Of a stretch of DNA of 64,000 nt, positions 1,366 to 59,300 are shown piece after piece. This DNA comes from an uncultured archaeon. Its GTDB lineage: Archaea > Iainarchaeota > Iainarchaeia > Iainarchaeales > JAAZKV01. Made by a program: the position numbers and the translations under genes. How positions within the stretch are numbered: position 1 is the stretch's first letter; each line of letters begins with the position of its first letter. Location of the stretch: the NCBI GenBank assembly GCA_964534045.1, contig CAZHNO010000003.1, positions 37,323-101,322 on the forward strand. The letters run 5' to 3'. The notes under the pieces were generated by a model, which saw only the letters and a list, made by a program, of their open reading frames with translations, was not told where the DNA came from and did not search any database.

Positions 1366-1516
1366 GCGTCCGTGATGTAATGGTAGCATAAAAGCCTTCC
1401 AGAGCCTTGTTAAGGCTCGCGAAAGAATTTGCCTATTGACAAGCAATAGGTAGAAAGCGAGTTTAAACAATTGCTGATGTTAGCTTTTTGTCGGGGTTCA
1501 AATCCCCGCGGGCGCA
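1366..1516 (+). tRNA. tRNA-Gly(TCC) with 80-nt intron at 37/38 (intron 1402-1481)
   Basis: Acceptor GCGTCCG/CGGGCGC+A, D-arm ATGT-AATGGT-AGCAT, anticodon stem AAAGC/GCTTT with CT-TCC-A^A, T-arm CGGGG-TTCAAAT-CCCCG; junctions form a bulge-helix-bulge with one U-U mismatch. Confidence 0.93.
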
Positions 1517-3873: not shown

Positions 3874-4299
3874 ATGGTTAAAGAATTTAAAGAAAAAATA
3901 ATTACAATAAGCATGAAAAAAAATTTTGGAAAACCAGCAACAAAAAAATCAAAAGCTGCGTTACATTTGATAAAAGAAGCAGTTAGAAAAGAAACAAGAG
4001 CAATTGAAGTTAAATTAAGTAATGGAATAAACGAAAAAATATGGGAGAGGGGAATGTTCAAAACAGTAAAAAAAATAACTGTAAAAGTTATCCCTGAAGG
4101 AAAGAATGTTCGCGTTTATTTACCTGAAGAAAAAATCATTGTTAAAAAAGAAGAAACAAAAAAGAAAGGATTAAAGGAAAAAGCAGAAGAAGCAAAAGCA
4201 CAATTGGAAGGAAAATCAAAAACTTCTGAAAAAAAAGAAAATTTAAAAACAGAAAATAAAAATGAAGAAAAAAATGTTGAAGAAAAGGCAAAACAATAA
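3874..4299 (+). CDS. rpl31e: 50S ribosomal protein L31e with K/E-rich tail
   Basis: VKLSNGINEKIWERG...KKITVKV motif; conserved operon position. Confidence 0.85.
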   Translation: MVKEFKEKIITISMKKNFGKPATKKSKAALHLIKEAVRKETRAIEVKLSNGINEKIWERGMFKTVKKITVKVIPEGKNVRVYLPEEKIIVKKEETKKKGLKEKAEEAKAQLEGKSKTSEKKENLKTENKNEEKNVEEKAKQ

Positions 4300-4318
4300 A
4301 GCCTTTTCTAGAATTTTT

Positions 4319-4981
4319 ATGAATATTAAAAAAACAAAAATACTTGGTTCTACTTACATTGGTTTGTTTGCAATAACAAACGATAACCTATGCTTTGCCC
4401 CAAAATCTATTGAAGAAAAAGCAAGCAAACTTATTGAAGATACATTAGATGTAAAATTAGTAAGAACAAATATTTATGATTCTTCATTGTTAGCAGTATT
4501 TGGAAAAATGAATAATAAAAAAATATTTTTGCCAAGTTTTGTTTCAAACCGAGAAATTGAAACAATTGAAAAAGAAATAAAGGTAGAAATATTGAGCACA
4601 GAACATGCACTTGGAAACTTGATTGAAATAAATGACACTCATGCAATATTGTCAAAAACCCTAAGTCCAAAAGAAATAAATGTATTTGAAAAAGAAAAAC
4701 TTAAGATAATTCAAACAAATATTGCAAAAACTGATGCTGTTGGTTCAGCAATAGTAATAACAAACAAAGGATTTGTAATTAATCCAAATGCAACAGAAGA
4801 AGAAGTTAAAAATATTCAGGAATTATTAAATATTAAAGGTGGAGCATCAACTGCAAACACAGGGGATAAATTAATAAGAAATTCAATTATAGCTAATTCA
4901 AAAGGAGCAATAGTTGGAGAACTAACAACTGGACACGAAATGAATAGAATTGATGAAGCATTAAGTGATGAGGGGAGATAA
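4319..4981 (+). CDS. eif6: Translation initiation factor 6 (aIF6)
   Basis: IGLFAITND, GNLIEIND, VGSAIVITNKG.V.NP, IANSKGAIVG..TTGHE..RI repeats; start reassigned to ATG 4319. Confidence 0.95.
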   Translation: MNIKKTKILGSTYIGLFAITNDNLCFAPKSIEEKASKLIEDTLDVKLVRTNIYDSSLLAVFGKMNNKKIFLPSFVSNREIETIEKEIKVEILSTEHALGNLIEINDTHAILSKTLSPKEINVFEKEKLKIIQTNIAKTDAVGSAIVITNKGFVINPNATEEEVKNIQELLNIKGGASTANTGDKLIRNSIIANSKGAIVGELTTGHEMNRIDEALSDEGR

Positions 4982-8494: not shown

Positions 8495-8550
8495 AGACTT
8501 GTCTGCGAAGCCTCGCACCCGCCGGGCGATGACGGCGTTATGACAAGTCT
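8495..8550. other. GC-rich structured element bounded by 9-bp inverted repeats
   Basis: AGACTTGTC (8495-8503) / GACAAGTCT (8542-8550) enclosing TGCGA-AGCC-TCGCA hairpin; overlaps the lemA stop. Confidence 0.6.
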
Positions 8551-25847: not shown

Positions 25848-26966
25848 CAAATAATCTTTTTCAAACTCTTTTTTGAATTTTATGAAATTGTTTTCTTGAA
25901 TTGCTTTTCTAGAATTTTTTATTAAATTTTGAATAAAATAAATATTGTGATAAGAAAGCAAAATGTGTGCATTCTGTTCATAAGTTTTGAACAAATGGTG
26001 TAAATATGCGCGAGAATGATTTTTGCAAACAAAACAATCACATTCTTTATCAAGTGAAGAAAAATCTTCTTTGTTTTTTGCATTAGCAATTTCTATTGCT
26101 CCGCTAGAAGTAAAAACTTTTCCATGGCGAGCCATTCTGGTTGGATATGCTGAATCAAAACAATCAGCCCCTTGTTCAATTGCTGAAAGGATTTCTAATG
26201 GCGAACCAATACCCATTACATACGTTGGATTATTTTCTGGCAAAACTTCCTTTACAGCTTTAATTATTCTAATCATATCTTCTTGCGCTTCGCCAATACC
26301 AAAACCACCCAATGCAACACCATCAAAACCAATTTTTGTTAAAGCAAGAGCACAATTCTGCCTAATGTCAGCATGATTTCCACCTTGTGCAATACCAAAA
26401 ATTAATTGCTTTGAATTGGTTTTATTTTTACTAGAATCATGTGTGTTTTTACATCTTTGAGCCCATTCAATAGTGCGAATTGCTGAATCTAAATAATCAT
26501 TTCTGTTTTTTCCAAATAAAGGTTGGTGGTCAAGACACATTGCAACATCTGAACCCAAAACATTTTGTATTTCAATAGCTTTTTCGGGAGTAATTAATTC
26601 TTGTGATTTATCAAATGGATTTTTCAAATAAACTCCTTTATCTGTTACTCTTGGAGAAAAATGATCAAGTATTAATTGAAAACCACCCGAGTCAGTAAAA
26701 AGCGCTTTATCCCAAGACATAAAACTATGTAAGCCACCTGCTTTTTCTATTACTTGTAAACCTGGCTTTAAATAATTAATAAAAGCATTAGAAATCAAAC
26801 AATCAAAACCCATTTCTTTCAATTCTGAATTAAGAATATTTTTTACTGCACCCTTGGTTGCAACTGGCATAAAAAAAGGAGTTTTTATTTCCCCATGTGC
26901 TGTTTTTAAAATTCCTGTGCGTGCGGAGCAACTAGAATCTTTATGTTTAATTTCAAAACAAGACAT
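25839..26966 (-). CDS. tgt: tRNA-guanine transglycosylase, bacterial (queuine-pathway) type
   Basis: TPFFMPVAT, TDSGGFQ, GIAQGG, GG.G.GE, YVMGIG, FDS..PTR.AR, CDCFVC..HSRAYLHHL Zn site. Confidence 0.95.
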   Translation of the reverse strand: MSCFEIKHKDSSCSARTGILKTAHGEIKTPFFMPVATKGAVKNILNSELKEMGFDCLISNAFINYLKPGLQVIEKAGGLHSFMSWDKALFTDSGGFQLILDHFSPRVTDKGVYLKNPFDKSQELITPEKAIEIQNVLGSDVAMCLDHQPLFGKNRNDYLDSAIRTIEWAQRCKNTHDSSKNKTNSKQLIFGIAQGGNHADIRQNCALALTKIGFDGVALGGFGIGEAQEDMIRIIKAVKEVLPENNPTYVMGIGSPLEILSAIEQGADCFDSAYPTRMARHGKVFTSSGAIEIANAKNKEDFSSLDKECDCFVCKNHSRAYLHHLFKTYEQNAHILLSYHNIYFIQNLIKNSRKAIQENNFIKFKKEFEKDYLLK

Positions 26967-27091
26967 ATAATAAATTATCAAAAAAAGAATTTAAAAAAGC
27001 AAGTTAGCTTTCTGGTTATTGAAAATAGCCAAATTCTTCGTATCAGCCAAGTGAAATTGGCTTTTTAAAAGGTTTTGACTAGAAATTATTT

Positions 27092-27359
27092 TGGACTAGA
27101 CTGGGCCGCCAGCGGTGGCTTGTTACCAGAAATCCGCTTTATGCTGGAGTCGAAGCTGAAGAAGAGGTTTTAATGCTAATGCATTTCGCCAAAGGCAAAT
27201 GTCGAAGCTCTGTCCTTACAGGCCCTTTTATGAAACGAACCCCGCCAGACTCGGAAGAGAGCAACGGTAATTTTATTAGAGAGCGCTGAAGGGTAACGGA
27301 GTGGAGTTTGTGTTTGGAAAGAGTGCACTAACTAGAAATCCATTCTTCAGCACGTCCAC
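27092..27359 (+). ncRNA. ffs: Signal recognition particle RNA (7S), about 268 nt
   Basis: Helix 1 TGGAC/GTCCA; Alu domain GACT/AGTC with UGU motif and AGCGG/CCGCT loop-loop complement; helix 5 CTGAAGAA/TTCTTCAG; helix 8 CCCGCCAG-ACTC-GGAA-GAG-AGCAACGG. Confidence 0.93.
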
Positions 27360-27447
27360 TTGATGTGGTGCTATTACAAATAGCACTTAACCACGTTTCG
27401 GAACCGCCCTACGAAATGGGCGAATCCATTCTTCAGTGTGTCCACTT
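27337..27447 (+). repeat. Direct repeat of the SRP RNA 3' end (25 nt, 22/25 identical)
   Basis: AATCCATTCTTCAGCACGTCCACTT (27337-27361) vs AATCCATTCTTCAGTGTGTCCACTT (27423-27447). Confidence 0.9.
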
Positions 27448-27680
27448 ATTGTAGTTGAACTATTTTCTGGTACATTAGCACAAGATAACAAATACGCACG
27501 CTTAGGGATTATCAATTGGAAAACTTCTCATTGGGCTACCAACGGTGCCCTCCGGCGCCGCCTCACGGAAGGGGCGAGAGAAAGGTTTTTATATCATTAA
27601 AACGTTGATTCTTGCAAGTAATCTTAAAATAAGCAAGTGGCTTATTTTATTAAAAAAATGGATTTAATGGAGGATTATCA

Positions 27681-27863
27681 ATGGTTTTCGAAAAGAAAAT
27701 GTCTGTAAAAGATCTTATTGAACAAATGCGACAAGAATTACAGAGAGATAGGTCAACACCAGCAAAAAAAGGTGCAAAAGCAAAATCTGTAAAAAAGGCT
27801 ACAAAAAAGAAGCCTGCTAAAAAAAAGGCAAAAAAAGCTGTGAAGAAAAAAAAGAAAATTTAA
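27681..27863 (+). CDS. Small protein with histone H1-like Lys/Ala/Pro tail
   Basis: GGAGG RBS; helical N-half then TPAKKGAKAKSVKKATKKKPAKKKAKKAVKKKKKI. Confidence 0.75.
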   Translation: MVFEKKMSVKDLIEQMRQELQRDRSTPAKKGAKAKSVKKATKKKPAKKKAKKAVKKKKKI

Positions 27864-27867
27864 AAAA

Positions 27868-28173
27868 TTATTTAGAAGTGCTCTTTTGCACTTCTTTTTC
27901 CAATTTCTTCAACACATCCTGAACAGTTTCAATTAACTGCCAATTGGTTTCGGACGCAACAAACACTTTGTTATTCAATAATAACTTCGCTTTGACTTCA
28001 TGCTGCTTTCTAAGCCCACCTTTAGCATATTCTTTAACTGATAAAGTAAGCTTGTCTGCCCCTAACAAAGGCACTTTTGAAAAAAATCTCTCAAAATTCT
28101 TTACAAAAATTGCATTATCTATCTCATCTACTTTCGGAAACTTGATTAACTCTAAATTAGAAAAACGCTCCAA
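27868..28173 (-). CDS. HPF/RaiA-like ribosome hibernation factor (putative)
   Basis: TTG start with GGGGGAG RBS; beta-alpha-beta-beta-beta-alpha pattern ending FVASETNWQLIETVQDVLKKLEKEV, as in HPF-like modules; judged by eye. Confidence 0.65.
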   Translation of the reverse strand: MERFSNLELIKFPKVDEIDNAIFVKNFERFFSKVPLLGADKLTLSVKEYAKGGLRKQHEVKAKLLLNNKVFVASETNWQLIETVQDVLKKLEKEVQKSTSK

Positions 28174-28206
28174 ATTGACTCCCCCCTAACTTAAATAAAA
28201 ATACTA

Positions 28207-28242: not shown

Positions 28243-30033
28243 ATGTCTAACCTAGTTTTAAATGATGAAACTCTTGAGAGTGAAAAAAAAATTAAAAAAG
28301 CATTTGAAATAATTCAAAAAAGTGGTGAAAAAGAAATACTTTTACGGGCAAAGAGAATTTTGCTTGTTTTAAACAAAAAAAATATGGGTGCAACAACCAC
28401 TATTTCTGCAATACTTTACCCCCTAGTTGAAAAACAAAAAATTAGTCTTGAAGAAATAAATAATACATTTGGACAAGAAGTAATGTTAATCGCAAAAGAA
28501 TGTGTTAGAATAGAAGAAATTCTAAATGCAAATTACAAAAAAATACCCCCTGAAACTTTAAGTGCATTAATACTCTCAATTTCAACCGATTTAAGAACAA
28601 TAATTATTAAGATTGCTGATATTACAGATCAATTAAAAAATAATTCTAGTATTGATAAAAATAAATTTATTTTTTTTGCAAAAAATATATATTCCCCACT
28701 AACTGCAAAGCTAGGAATTTCTGATCTTGGCTGGCAAATTGCGGATTATTGTTTCAAACTAGAAAACCCACAAGGATATGAAAAAATAAAAAAATTGGTA
28801 AATAAAACTCGAGAAGAAAGAGAAAAACTAATTGAAGATATAAGAATTGAAATAGAAAAATTTTTGAGTGGAAAAATAAAAGTACATGTTTTTGGGCGCC
28901 CAAAAAACTTTTACTCAATTCATGAAAAATTAAAAAAAGTATCTTTCAAAGAAATGCATGACATTTATGGAATAAGAATAATTTGCAACAAAGAAAGAGA
29001 ATGCTATGAAATTTTAGGAAATATACATTCAAAATATAATTTCATTCCAAGCGCATTTGATGATTATATTGCCAAAGAAGGAAAGGGGCTTGGGAAAAAA
29101 GGCTATCAAAGCATACACACTGCAATAATAAGAAATAATGACGTTATTGAAATACAAATAAGAACTTGGCAACAACACCTAAAAACAGAATCTAGTATTT
29201 ACTGGGAATATAAAAGATTACGAAAAGATACTACTCTTGACAAATCACTAAGTTGGGAAAGGCAATTGGTGGAGTGGCAAAAAAGTATTGGGGAAGAAAA
29301 TAAAAACAAAAAAATAATTAGTGGAAAATTATTTGTTTTCACTCCAAAAAATGAAGTCATTACTCTTCCAAATAATTCAAGCGCGCTCGATTTTGCGTTT
29401 GCTGTTCATTCAGATATTGGAAAAAGAGTAAAACAAGCAAAAATTAATGGTGAACTAGTTCCAATAGAAACTAAATTAAAAAACTTGGACAAAGTTGAAA
29501 TAATTACTGATCAAAAAACAAAAATCAGGCCAGATTGGTTGAATATGGTGGTTAGTGAAAGAGCAAAAACAAAAATCAAAAGACACTTTGGATTAAAAAG
29601 TGCAATTGTAAAAAAGCAACATGCATCAGAACAAATTACAAAAAAAATAAAACTTGCTGAATGCTGTCATCCTCTGCCAGGGGAAGATGTAATTGGAATA
29701 AAAACCACTAAAAGAAAAATAATAATTCATAAACGAGATTGTAAAAACATAGCAAACATTTCTAAAAATAAAAAAATAGAAATATATTTTGAAAAGGAAA
29801 GAGGAAAAACAAAAATTAAAGTTTTGGCAATTGATAGAATTGGTTTACTGGCTGAAATTCTTGAAGAAATAAAAAGAAATAAAGCAACATTAAGTTCAAC
29901 AAACTTTAATATAAAAAAATCTGGGTATGTTGAAGCAATATTTGAACTTGAAATAAAAAATATAAATGCGCTTGAGAGATTAATTAATAACTTAGAACAA
30001 ATTCCATCAATACAAAGCGTTGATAGGGAGTAA
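28243..30033 (+). CDS. rsh: Long RelA/SpoT homolog (degenerate HD, synthetase, TGS, ZFD, ACT)
   Basis: GRPKNFYSIHEK, DIYGIR, DYIAK...GYQSIHT, EIQIRT, FVFTPKNEVITLP...DFAFAVHSDIG, AECCHPLPGEDVIG, C-terminal ACT (AIDRIGLLAEI). Confidence 0.95.
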   Translation: MSNLVLNDETLESEKKIKKAFEIIQKSGEKEILLRAKRILLVLNKKNMGATTTISAILYPLVEKQKISLEEINNTFGQEVMLIAKECVRIEEILNANYKKIPPETLSALILSISTDLRTIIIKIADITDQLKNNSSIDKNKFIFFAKNIYSPLTAKLGISDLGWQIADYCFKLENPQGYEKIKKLVNKTREEREKLIEDIRIEIEKFLSGKIKVHVFGRPKNFYSIHEKLKKVSFKEMHDIYGIRIICNKERECYEILGNIHSKYNFIPSAFDDYIAKEGKGLGKKGYQSIHTAIIRNNDVIEIQIRTWQQHLKTESSIYWEYKRLRKDTTLDKSLSWERQLVEWQKSIGEENKNKKIISGKLFVFTPKNEVITLPNNSSALDFAFAVHSDIGKRVKQAKINGELVPIETKLKNLDKVEIITDQKTKIRPDWLNMVVSERAKTKIKRHFGLKSAIVKKQHASEQITKKIKLAECCHPLPGEDVIGIKTTKRKIIIHKRDCKNIANISKNKKIEIYFEKERGKTKIKVLAIDRIGLLAEILEEIKRNKATLSSTNFNIKKSGYVEAIFELEIKNINALERLINNLEQIPSIQSVDRE

Positions 30034-56370: not shown

Positions 56371-59300
56371 TTGCATAAGATAATTTTAGCTTTAGCTGTA
56401 CTTTTAGTATTGTTTCCTTTAGTATTTTCTGGTGATTGTTCTTCTCCTTATTTCAAATCAGTTGCTTGTTTTGATTTGAATCATTATTTTGATTTTAATG
56501 GTTTTGTTTCAAATCCTTTAAACACAACTTTTATTACTGCGAGTGGGGAATTAGATTGGAATAATTTAGATGGGGGGAGTGAACTTTCTTCAAGCAACGC
56601 TCTTTTTGATTCTAATTTAGTTGGTTTGTGGCATTTTAATGGAAATGCGCTTGATAGTAGTGGGAATGGAATTGATGGAACTACAAATAATTTTGATGGT
56701 GATGAAACAACTAGGGGGTTGTTTGGAAGTAATGCTTATGATTTTGACGGAACAAACGACCACATTACTTTTGGGACTTCAACATTAACAAGCGGGGCAA
56801 CAACAATTAGTTTTTGGTATAATTATGATACTGGTGATGGTTATATTGCCGATTTAAAAGTTGGTGGTGCTTCAGGAGCATTTTTTGCAGCAACAAATAG
56901 TAGTATCTGTTGGGCATTCAGAGGGGTTAGTGGAACAATTTGTGGAGCCATAAATGTTTCTGGTTGGACTCATGCATTAATTACTTATAATGGTGGAACG
57001 ACAAGTGATGTTGGAAATTATGCTATTTATATAAATGGCAGAAGCATTCCTCTTACAAATTATGGTTCTCAGGGGGGTTCTACTTCAATAAATTATTTGG
57101 GTTATGTTGTTGGGGGCACTTATTTTAATGGAAAAATAGAAGAACTTGCTATTTGGAATAAAGCATTAACTTCTGATGAAGCGCAAGTGGTTTATGATTC
57201 ACAAAAAAAAAATTGGTTAGATGAAAATTTAATTGCTTATTACAAATTTAATGAAGCTAGCGGAACAACTATTTATGATTCTGCAAGAGGGCATAATGGA
57301 ACCCTTACAAACGGAGCAAGCGTGAATGCAAAAGGAATGTGGGATACAAATGCTTTGATTCTTGATGCGAGTAATGATTTTGTGAATGTTACTGGGGGAA
57401 TAGATAATAATTTTTTTAATGGTTCAATTTCTGTTTGGTTTAAAACTACAAACAAATCAAATAATCGGTATATTTTTGAGGCTACAAACACCACTCCAAG
57501 TGAAGGAATATATGTATACATTAACATTACTACTGGAAAGTTAGGTTTTTATGGTGCAAATGATGGTTCTGCAATATTTGATATATTATCCAATAAAGAT
57601 ATGACAGATGGGCAGTGGCACCATGCAATTGGTGTGTGGGATAACACTCAAGCAAGCTTATACATTGATGGATTATTACAAACTGACTCCGAAAGCGGGG
57701 ATAATACTTTAGATATGCAAGCGCCATTCACTAGAACTCTTATTGGAAGTTATAACGGGGGTTATAATTTTGGCGGTTCAATAGATGAATTAAAAATTTA
57801 TGATAGGGCTTTGACAGAAGAAGAAATTCTTTATGATTATAACAATTTTTTAAATAACAAATTTGTTGCTGATGAAAATGCAATTATTCATGCAGTAGAT
57901 AATTCTCTTCGTGATTGGAATTATTTTAAAATTAATGAAAGTTTGTATTATGATTTTGGAAAAGAAATGCAATCACACTTTGATGGAACAAGCAAAACGA
58001 ATGAGCTTACTTCAGCAAGTTCTTTGTTTGATTCTAATTTAGTTGGCTTGTGGCATTTGAATGGTAATGCACTGGATAGTTCTGGAAGTGGGAATAATGG
58101 TTCTTGGGGCGGAAGCGAAGAATATACAACTGGGTTGTGGGATACAAACTGTGGAGATTTTGATGGAGTGAGTAACTATATAACAGTTTCAAATGATTCA
58201 AGTATTGATTTTGCTGATGAGGATTTTTCCGTATCGGCATGGATTAATGTAAATAGCTTTCCAAATGTTGGTCAGTTTATTGTTGGAAAAAATTATGGAA
58301 GCACTGGTGTTAAATGGTATGCTCTATCTGTCACTAATGTTGGGGAATTATATTTCTCAATTGATGATGGCACAAATATTGTAACCGCGCAGTCTAAAAC
58401 AGGAACGATTGAAATTGGAAAATGGTATCATATTCTTGGACAAAGAGACACTTCAGCAAGCAAAGTTAGACTATATATTAATGGAATAGACATTAACTCC
58501 TTAAGCGAATCAGCTGTTGGTTCAATAAGTAATAATGGTCCCTTTGTAATTGGTGCAAGAGCAGATTTGTCTTCTTCAAGATTTTACGATGGAAAGATAG
58601 AAGAAGTCACAATTTGGAACAAGGCGTTGTCTACAACAGAAATTCAATCTCTTTATAATTCTCAAGCATCACAATTTCATGAACCAGATATTAATGTTCT
58701 TTATCATTTCAATGGAAATGCTTTGGATTCTAGTGGAAGTGGTTATCATGGAACTCTAGTAAACTTTGGCGGTGATGAAAATGTTTCTTGTTTATGGGAC
58801 ACTAATTGTTTTAGTTATGGTGGGACAAATGAATATATCCAAACTACTTTTCAACCACAATATGTAAAGAGTGATTCAACAGGATTTTCACATAGTCTTT
58901 GGTTTAGAAAACCTTACTCAGGAAATTGGGAATATATGTTGGGGGTTGCTGCGCAGGCTCCCTCGTTGTATTATCTTTTTTCTAATGTTGGAATATTACA
59001 AGTTGGTTTTAGCACTAATGAAACATCAACAGTTTGTAATATGTATACTCCATATCGTGTTGATGATAATTTGTGGCACAATATAATATTTACTCGTGGG
59101 GGCGCACAAGGGGCAACAGCACACAATTTGTATTTGGATGGGGTTTGGGTTGATTCAGAATGGTATCAAGGAAATTGTGATGAAAACATGTACTTCCAAG
59201 AGCCTTTTTATTTTGGAAATAGAAATCCTTCGGGTGGTGAACCAACAAATAATTGGTTTGTTGGAGAAATAGAAGATTTTGTTGTGTGGAATAGAAAATT

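Follow-up and report, generated by a model that had tools for sequence, protein, structure and literature searches.

The SRP RNA gene and its genomic setting

The window analysed here, the whole stretch of 64,000 nt, has a G+C content of ∼30%. It is part of an Iainarchaeia (Diapherotrites) genome, and homologues of the tRNA-guanine transglycosylase (TGT) encoded beside the locus under study carry the names Diapherotrites or 'Candidatus Iainarchaeum'. The SRP (7S) RNA gene lies at positions 27089–27361 on the plus strand. It matches the Rfam model RF01857 at 137.7 bits, against a gathering score of 96.5, and the alignment covers model positions 1–317, which identifies an archaeal SRP RNA. Homologous SRP RNA genes of 267–270 nt were found in 8 relatives, and the relatives' RNAs score 124–140 bits against the same model. 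The helix-6 segment of the model is absent from the window's gene, with 40 model positions skipped in the Rfam alignment. Helix 6 is likewise missing from the SRP RNA of the whole clade (the window and all related loci, with genes all in the 267–270-nt range), an absence that prompts the question of whether these archaea have, or require, SRP19.

The local gene order is RadA, a 211-aa protein, TGT (minus strand), SRP RNA, a lysine-rich small protein, a RaiA-like 101-aa protein (minus strand) and RelA/SpoT, and this order is kept in relatives from RadA to RelA/SpoT. The gene that comes next after the SRP RNA gene, in the same orientation (27681–27863, plus strand), encodes a protein of the 60–100-aa class, and a gene of this class likewise comes next, in that orientation, in L084, L086, L089, L094, L170 and L173. 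The exceptions are L166, where a 104-aa gene lies between, and L081/L088, where a transposon does. The N-terminus of these proteins, MVFEKKMSVK[D/E]LIEQMR, is conserved and their tail is rich in lysine. They may be RNA-binding partners. The RaiA-like ribosome-hibernation protein (27868–28173, minus strand) adjoins a full-length RelA/SpoT homologue (28243–30033, plus strand) with HD, RelA_SpoT, TGS and ACT domains, a neighbourhood that is unusual in an archaeon.

Several smaller features of the window were also recorded. A near copy (TTTTGACTAGA) of the SRP RNA 5' end (TTTGGACTAGA) sits 17 nt upstream of it (27073–27083 against 27090–27100), between a TATA-like box and the gene; none was seen in the relatives. 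An Rfam tRNA match spanning 151 nt at 1366–1516 (plus strand), not called by ARAGORN, probably represents a tRNA gene interrupted by a long intron. Short G+C-rich islands at 8500–8542, 58938–58966 and 59091–59122 have no Rfam match in this genome of 30% G+C, and the first forms a long hairpin with closing strands GACTTGTC and GACAAGTC. These islands may be unannotated small RNAs.

Duplication of the SRP RNA 3' end

The functional 3' end of the SRP RNA, which is the 3' strand of helix 5 plus helix 1, is formed by the segment c1 (AATCCATTCTTCAGCACGTCCACTT; 27337–27361, plus strand). A second copy of this end, c2 (AATCCATTCTTCAGTGTGTCCACTT; 27423–27447, plus strand), is offset by 86 nt downstream and is identical at 22 of 25 positions. 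A preliminary description of this DNA had reported just such a duplication around a 61-nt insert, and the present analysis confirms it. The sole mismatches are three adjacent transitions, CAC in c1 (27351–27353) against TGT in c2 (27437–27439), and they fall where the helix-5 half of the repeat meets its helix-1 half, the presumed crossover point in the recombination reading developed below. The likeness between the copies runs 8 nt beyond the RNA end, reaching 27369 after c1 and 27455 after c2, so that 33 nt match at 82% with 5 of the 8 flanking nucleotides in common. The pattern of c occurs at two places only in the 64-kb window, and none of 100 shuffles produced it. Downstream of c2, the 3' flank at 27448–27470 (plus strand), as read from the sequence and compared with L089 and L094, is of the ancestral type. 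The first run of four T after the gene lies at 27463–27466 and is a possible terminator of a read-through transcript.

An artefact of assembly, which the preliminary description had named as the result that would undo the duplication, was considered among the alternatives. Logan contigs from two other runs, both belonging to the same wastewater study as the window, cover 27139–28189 (X1) and 26772–27760 (X2) with 0 differences. Because these contigs of two further runs span the whole region without difference, the duplication is real DNA. The same architecture is moreover found in four species, from different samples and assemblers, and one of these loci, L081, was recovered from three separate assemblies. 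The probability of an artefact is thus practically negligible. A CRISPR-like repeat-spacer unit was also rejected, since there are two copies only and the 'spacer' is conserved between species.

A conserved two-hairpin insert between the copies

The DNA between the copies, insert B (27362–27422, plus strand), is 61 nt long and aligns as a homologue of the 52–65-nt inserts of L081, L166 and L170. It contains two hairpins. H1 (27365–27394, plus strand) folds with an inner stem GGTGCTATT / AATAGCACT (27367–27387) within outer pairs GTGG / CCAC. H2 (27405–27422, plus strand) has the form CGCCC(T)-ACGAAA-(T)GGGCG with a conserved RCGRAA loop, and it directly abuts c2, at the same junction in all four species. 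Both hairpins had been named in the preliminary description, and both are present in the minimum-free-energy folds.

Comparison of the four species provides further evidence for these structures. In H1, all 36 of 36 cells are paired, and both sides have changed in 4 of the 9 pairs. In H2, 28 of 30 cells are paired over five copies, a count that includes a second H2-like hairpin at 27559–27576, and two pairs have changed on both sides. Several of the hairpin cells are G-U, which pair on the sense strand only. The G-U (G-T) pairs and the compensatory variation are more typical of a structure formed by RNA or a single strand than of duplex sites bound in a sequence-specific way.

All four inserts can be aligned. 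L081, L166 and L170 have in common AATATTTATAAGG, H1, CCTTGAYGTAT and H2, and the window's B is the most divergent of the four. Because intergenic DNA elsewhere in the module-bearing species is unalignable between them, B is constrained, in the role of an RNA, of single-stranded DNA or of a selfish unit. Motifs resembling B or H2 were found at SRP loci only in the 730 kb of loci searched, and an Rfam search of 27340–27700 gave 0 matches at E-values up to 10.

Several known kinds of element were tried for B and rejected. A tRNA-like or known ribozyme element does not fit: ARAGORN called no tRNA, no Rfam family was matched, and a hammerhead core proved a misfit on inspection. The ends of B (TAATATTT… and …ACAGGCG) are not inverted repeats and a duplication of 24–35 bp is far longer than usual, neither of which fits a transposon with target-site duplication such as the one in L088 described below. 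An IS200/IS605-type insertion makes no duplication.

The second H2-like hairpin, CGCCTC-ACGGAA-GGGGCG (27559–27576), is part of a G+C-rich element at 27524–27580 (plus strand; repeat family D2) that is identical to the H2 of L081 at 22 of 28 positions, with one flipped pair. Copies of this element, about 46 nt of it (27532–27577), lie at other loci of related metagenomes: runs X6/X7 have at least three further contigs with it and X1–X3 have one, and the flanks are unrelated and A+T-rich. It is a dispersed small element or an RNA motif without Rfam match.

Occupied and empty sites among relatives

The SRP locus was recovered from nine further lineages. The complete c1-B-c2 module, with a homologous B, is present in three other species (L081, L166 and L170) besides the window. 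In L081, c1 is AAATCCATTTTCCAGTACGTCCACT and c2 is AAATCCATTGTTCCAGTACGTCCACT, with an insert of about 64 nt. In L166, the copies are the same from GAAATCC to TTTA, including 11 nt past GTCCAC, around a 52-nt insert, and in L170 they are the same from GAAATCC to GTCCAC around a 63-nt insert. The start-to-start spacing of the copies in the module-bearing species is 85–90 nt. Six relatives (L084, L086, L089, L094, L173 and X6), the closest included, have a single c and no module. The comparison of occupied and empty sites that had been proposed for this locus is thereby answered, since both kinds exist.

The closest relative, from run X6, differs at 5 positions in 289 nt of SRP RNA. Its locus consists of c1 with the 8-nt flank, then a T5 run, then unrelated sequence, with no c2; 82 nt, of which 60 were recovered, stand in place of window positions 27370–27572. 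A metagenome search with an SRP 21-mer returned 5 loci only, and in a search of genome contigs with the TGT protein profile, the matches listed reach at most 52% identity and their loci contain no detectable SRP gene.

The divergence of B between species roughly parallels that of the host SRP RNA. The constant size and homology of B in four species, together with this host-parallel divergence, fit constrained vertical inheritance at least as well as mobility. Trees of RadA, TGT, the 101-aa protein, RelA and SRP RNA are mutually discordant (loci L081–L094 and the window), and SRP stretches of more than 100 nt are identical within otherwise different sequences in runs X4 and X8. The discordance of adjacent-gene and SRP trees and these shared stretches suggest frequent recombination among the lineages.

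Evidence for recombination at the SRP gene end

The anatomy of the locus is a classic one: direct repeats of the 3' end of a small-RNA gene flanking an insert are what is seen at site-specific recombination (att) sites. The repeats include the 3' end of the target RNA gene, at 22 of 25 positions in the window and identically or nearly so in L081, L166 and L170. The distal repeat lies next to native flank, and the corresponding sites are empty in relatives. The window's c2 and flank (CAGTGTGTCCACTTATTGTA) include 20 nt identical to the native SRP end and flank of L094, and 16 nt in common with those of L089. Its c1 and flank (…CACGTCCACTTGATGTGGT) equal the native end of X6. As c1 with its flank is the X6 end and c2 with its flank is the L094 end, the locus reads as two different native ends joined via B.

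An independent junction at the same site was found between L166 and its sister strain L167, which come from different JGI samples, 3300077746 and 3300077993 respectively. Their sequences are identical over 4,013 nt with 0 mismatches and then diverge completely inside c2, between CTCTG and GCACGTCC. This break point is 1 nt from the start of the window's c1/c2 mismatches at the homologous position, and it also divides the helix-5-pairing part of c from the part whose partner is the 5' end. Two otherwise identical genomes are thus polymorphic for a junction inside c2. Beyond it, L167 carries unknown DNA (4014–4373) with an orphan coiled-coil ORF (MENKNEIEKELGFS…), a promoter-like region and the inverted repeats GCACTTAAAGT / ACTTTAAGTGC. 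The ORF has no homologues in any collection searched. The end of the L167 element has no similarity to B, and the insertion is therefore a different element or a rearrangement.

These observations are the basis of our leading, still tentative reading, to which we give a little less than an even chance: c would be an att site, and c1-B-c2 would be attL, a cargo-less mini-element and attR, with c1 as the proposed attL core and c2 as the proposed attR core. DNA carrying its own copy of c would recombine with the chromosomal c near the middle of c, at the boundary of the helix-5 and helix-1 halves. With a crossover near the middle of c, the gene would retain an entire 3' end (c1), and the distal half that c had at first would be shifted 86 nt downstream together with the native flank and become c2. 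The two structure-conserved inverted repeats of B would be a requirement of the recombination machinery. Since B is without genes, it would depend on a recombinase acting in trans, for example from larger elements at the same site. That a recombinase took part, where the crossover fell and that B is mobile at all are inferences.

The search for the element itself gave negative results. No integrase or other element genes lie between the repeats, which are separated by 52–65 nt, or near them, and a heuristic scan for a tyrosine-recombinase motif in the window and all Iainarchaeal loci found none. Neither an attP on a free element nor a circular junction was found. In IMG/VR, the SRP 21-mer, the B motifs, the L167 junction and the L167 ORF had 0 matches; the 70 matches to a degenerate c pattern look like chance occurrences within other sequence. 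BLAST against phage and plasmid collections returned no match to attP-like or B-like sequence. The attP search is a weak negative, because the viral, phage and plasmid collections hold few DPANN elements. A 5.5-kb insertion after c2 in L081/L088 was considered as the missing element and rejected as an ordinary transposon. It occupies L088 3385–8880 (equivalent to L081 downstream of c2), encodes a DDE transposase, an AAA ATPase and two orphan genes, has terminal inverted repeats GGRCTTGTGCGAAAAGT and a 10-bp target duplication GAAAATTACG, and was inserted ∼105 nt after c2.

The preliminary description had suggested an att-like scar, and only part of this stands. The ancestral-type flank after c2, the occupied and empty sites and the foreign DNA joining inside c2 in L167 support the att likeness. 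The word scar is wrong for an insert of 52–65 nt that is conserved in four species with covarying hairpins, and there are no nearby element genes or integrase. Overall, the att reading accounts for the anatomy of the locus, for the identity that reaches into the flank, for the ancestral-type flank and for the patchy distribution, as well as for the L166/L167 junction. Taken alone, it leaves unexplained the constancy of B and the matching to the host of the c2 half that would derive from the element.

The second copy follows the first in each lineage

The helix-5 half of c varies by lineage in step with the 5' strand of helix 5, giving lineage-specific pairs (CTTCAG/CTGAAG, CTCTGG/CCAGAG and TTCCAG/CTGGAA). 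In every module-bearing lineage, c2 carries the version of that lineage's own c1. The three differences in the window's c2 keep the pairing: in the Rfam alignment, one is a C to U change opposite G and two are at unpaired positions. The tracking of c1 by c2 is not how an old neutral copy would behave. It requires selection on c2, conversion from c1, a recent origin in each lineage or a turnover that exchanges the copies. An integrase with a fixed crossover does not explain it without gene conversion or copy-swapping turnover. As a speculative addition to the att reading, repeated excision and integration with variable resolution within c might put either copy into the gene-proximal position, where it would come under selection.

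The main rival is that B and c2 form a functional 3' extension of the SRP RNA, in a precursor or a longer mature form, made by reading from the promoter through c1. This takes up the other suggestion of the preliminary description, a longer alternative fold or a processing signal, and it has its rank because the compensatory changes that each lineage has made in helix 5 recur in c2. c2 would be kept complementary to the 5' strand and would replace c1 or share its job. For instance, c1 might supply the helix-5 half and c2 the helix-1 half, both paired simultaneously with the 5' strand, and H1 and H2 would protrude as an expansion at the helix-5/helix-1 junction. The match of c2 to its own lineage's c1 at positions covarying with the 5' strand of helix 5, the intact pairing of the window's three c2 differences, and the maintenance of H1 and H2 by compensatory and G-U changes on the sense strand are all consistent with such an RNA. 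The DNA between c1 and c2 contains no run of four or more T, the first being that at 27463–27466, and the module-less X6 has its T5 run directly after the gene. In the RNAalifold consensus of the four extended RNAs, c1 is used for helix 5 and the 5' end pairs with c2, although these c2 pairings vary on one side only over the four sequences. Neutral repeats so close together should also vanish fast by slippage, and the module persists in four diverged species. The loop of H2 is GNRA-like (GAAA/GGAA), in an SRP RNA that has lost helix 6.

Against an extended RNA, the module is dispensable, being absent from six relatives including the closest. The identity of the L166 copies continues into the flank, 11 nt beyond GTCCAC and so past the mature RNA end, where it would not be needed for RNA pairing. 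The L166/L167 junction inside c2 indicates DNA recombination, and no Rfam family was matched. Among the RNA sequencing runs, none contains 27340–27600, and the RNA contigs of related SRP RNAs end at 27337–27341, none of them covering B or c2. We give a functional extension somewhat less weight than the att reading, and regard it as a serious possibility. The att and extension readings are not exclusive, and an insertion of mobile origin could later have been co-opted. A combined form, judged somewhat unlikely, would make B and c2 a working 86-nt 3' expansion with two extra helices and a second 3' strand that allows strand swapping, doubling as a docking site for mobile DNA. Strand swapping in such an expansion would amount to a structural switch or an alternative long isoform.

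Other origins of the repeat

A neutral local duplication was also weighed. It would start from an ancestral tandem unit running from the SRP RNA 3' end to a terminal hairpin, which then decayed by deletions; short-patch conversion from c1 would keep c2 alike, and B would survive as terminator or stabiliser hairpins of the SRP transcript. The window contains interleaved repeats in the order c1-x-H2-c2-y-H2', with spacings of 86 and 154 nt, and a third collinear block (ATTACAAATA-GCAC against ATAACAAATACGCAC) points in the same direction, a score equalled by 1.9% of shuffles. The identical flanks in L166 are in keeping with conversion, or with copying in recent times. However, no second H2 follows c2 in L081, L166 or L170, and the module-less relatives are without any B. 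The junction between H2 and c2 is the same in all four species, which indicates one origin or a site-specific process. Deletion between repeats of 25–35 nt lying 86 nt apart should, moreover, outrun conversion. On balance, a neutral duplication is quite unlikely.

Archaeal RNA precursors can be processed via bulge-helix-bulge motifs, and the SRP RNA of Thermoproteus, processed at such motifs, is a precedent. Here, B and one copy of c would be removed as an intron, or by permuted-gene processing, at a bulge-helix-bulge by the splicing endonuclease, and the repeat spacing would permit the excision of exactly one unit. A search for the pattern helix(4)-bulge(3)-helix(4)-bulge(3)-helix(4) turned up scattered weak matches only, with no motif at homologous positions in all four species, and this explanation is very improbable.

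Relation to known systems and significance

The module is a real and reproducible feature, conserved in evolution, and most likely a miniature insertion bounded by att sites where the SRP RNA gene end forms a hot spot of recombination. That mobile DNA integrates at the ends of tRNA and tmRNA genes is well established in textbooks. The SRP RNA gene can also serve, as the attB of phage phiEf11 lies inside ffs, the bacterial SRP RNA gene (PMC12540744; 2025). No archaeal report of such an integration or structure at an SRP RNA gene was found in the literature searched. As in the att duplications of tRNA and tmRNA genes and the ffs case, the repeats here are the 3' end of a small structural RNA gene and the gene end is intact. 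The displaced copy likewise adjoins native flank, and occupied and empty sites coexist among relatives. Unlike those cases, the host is archaeal, the 'element' is 52–65 bp without integrase or cargo, the insert is conserved with covarying hairpins in four species, and no free attP was found. Of the known kinds, the att duplication of integrative elements comes closest, and the agreement is incomplete: the anatomy, the empty sites and the second junction are shared, and no integrase, element genes or attP were found.

Three further comparisons are instructive. Cis-mobilisable elements (CIMEs), described in Streptococcus thermophilus, are att-flanked remnants of integrative elements that have no integrase of their own and are kilobases long. 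They resemble the module in their att-insert-att layout without recombination genes, and a larger element is apparently present at the same site in L167. The module unit is only 86 bp, and it is doubtful that the mobilisation of so small a unit would be physically feasible. The SRP RNA of Thermoproteus, which is permuted or circularised, is another case of unusual architecture at archaeal SRP RNA gene ends, but the gene order is not permuted here and there is no conserved bulge-helix-bulge motif. Finally, two conserved covarying hairpins added at a helix junction recall the expansion segments and variable 3' extensions of structural RNAs. Unlike these, the candidate extension carries a second copy of the preceding strand.

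In this DPANN lineage, the 3' end of the SRP RNA acts as a site of recombination and, in four species, carries a conserved, gene-less insert of two hairpins; mobile DNA seems to use the gene end as a docking site. A mini-element of this size, if the insert is one, would rank with the smallest units bounded by att sites so far described, and it would hint at mobile elements and recombinases of Iainarchaeia that are still unknown. Should the module instead be expressed, it would constitute a new SRP RNA architecture, one that carries a spare copy of its own closing strand.
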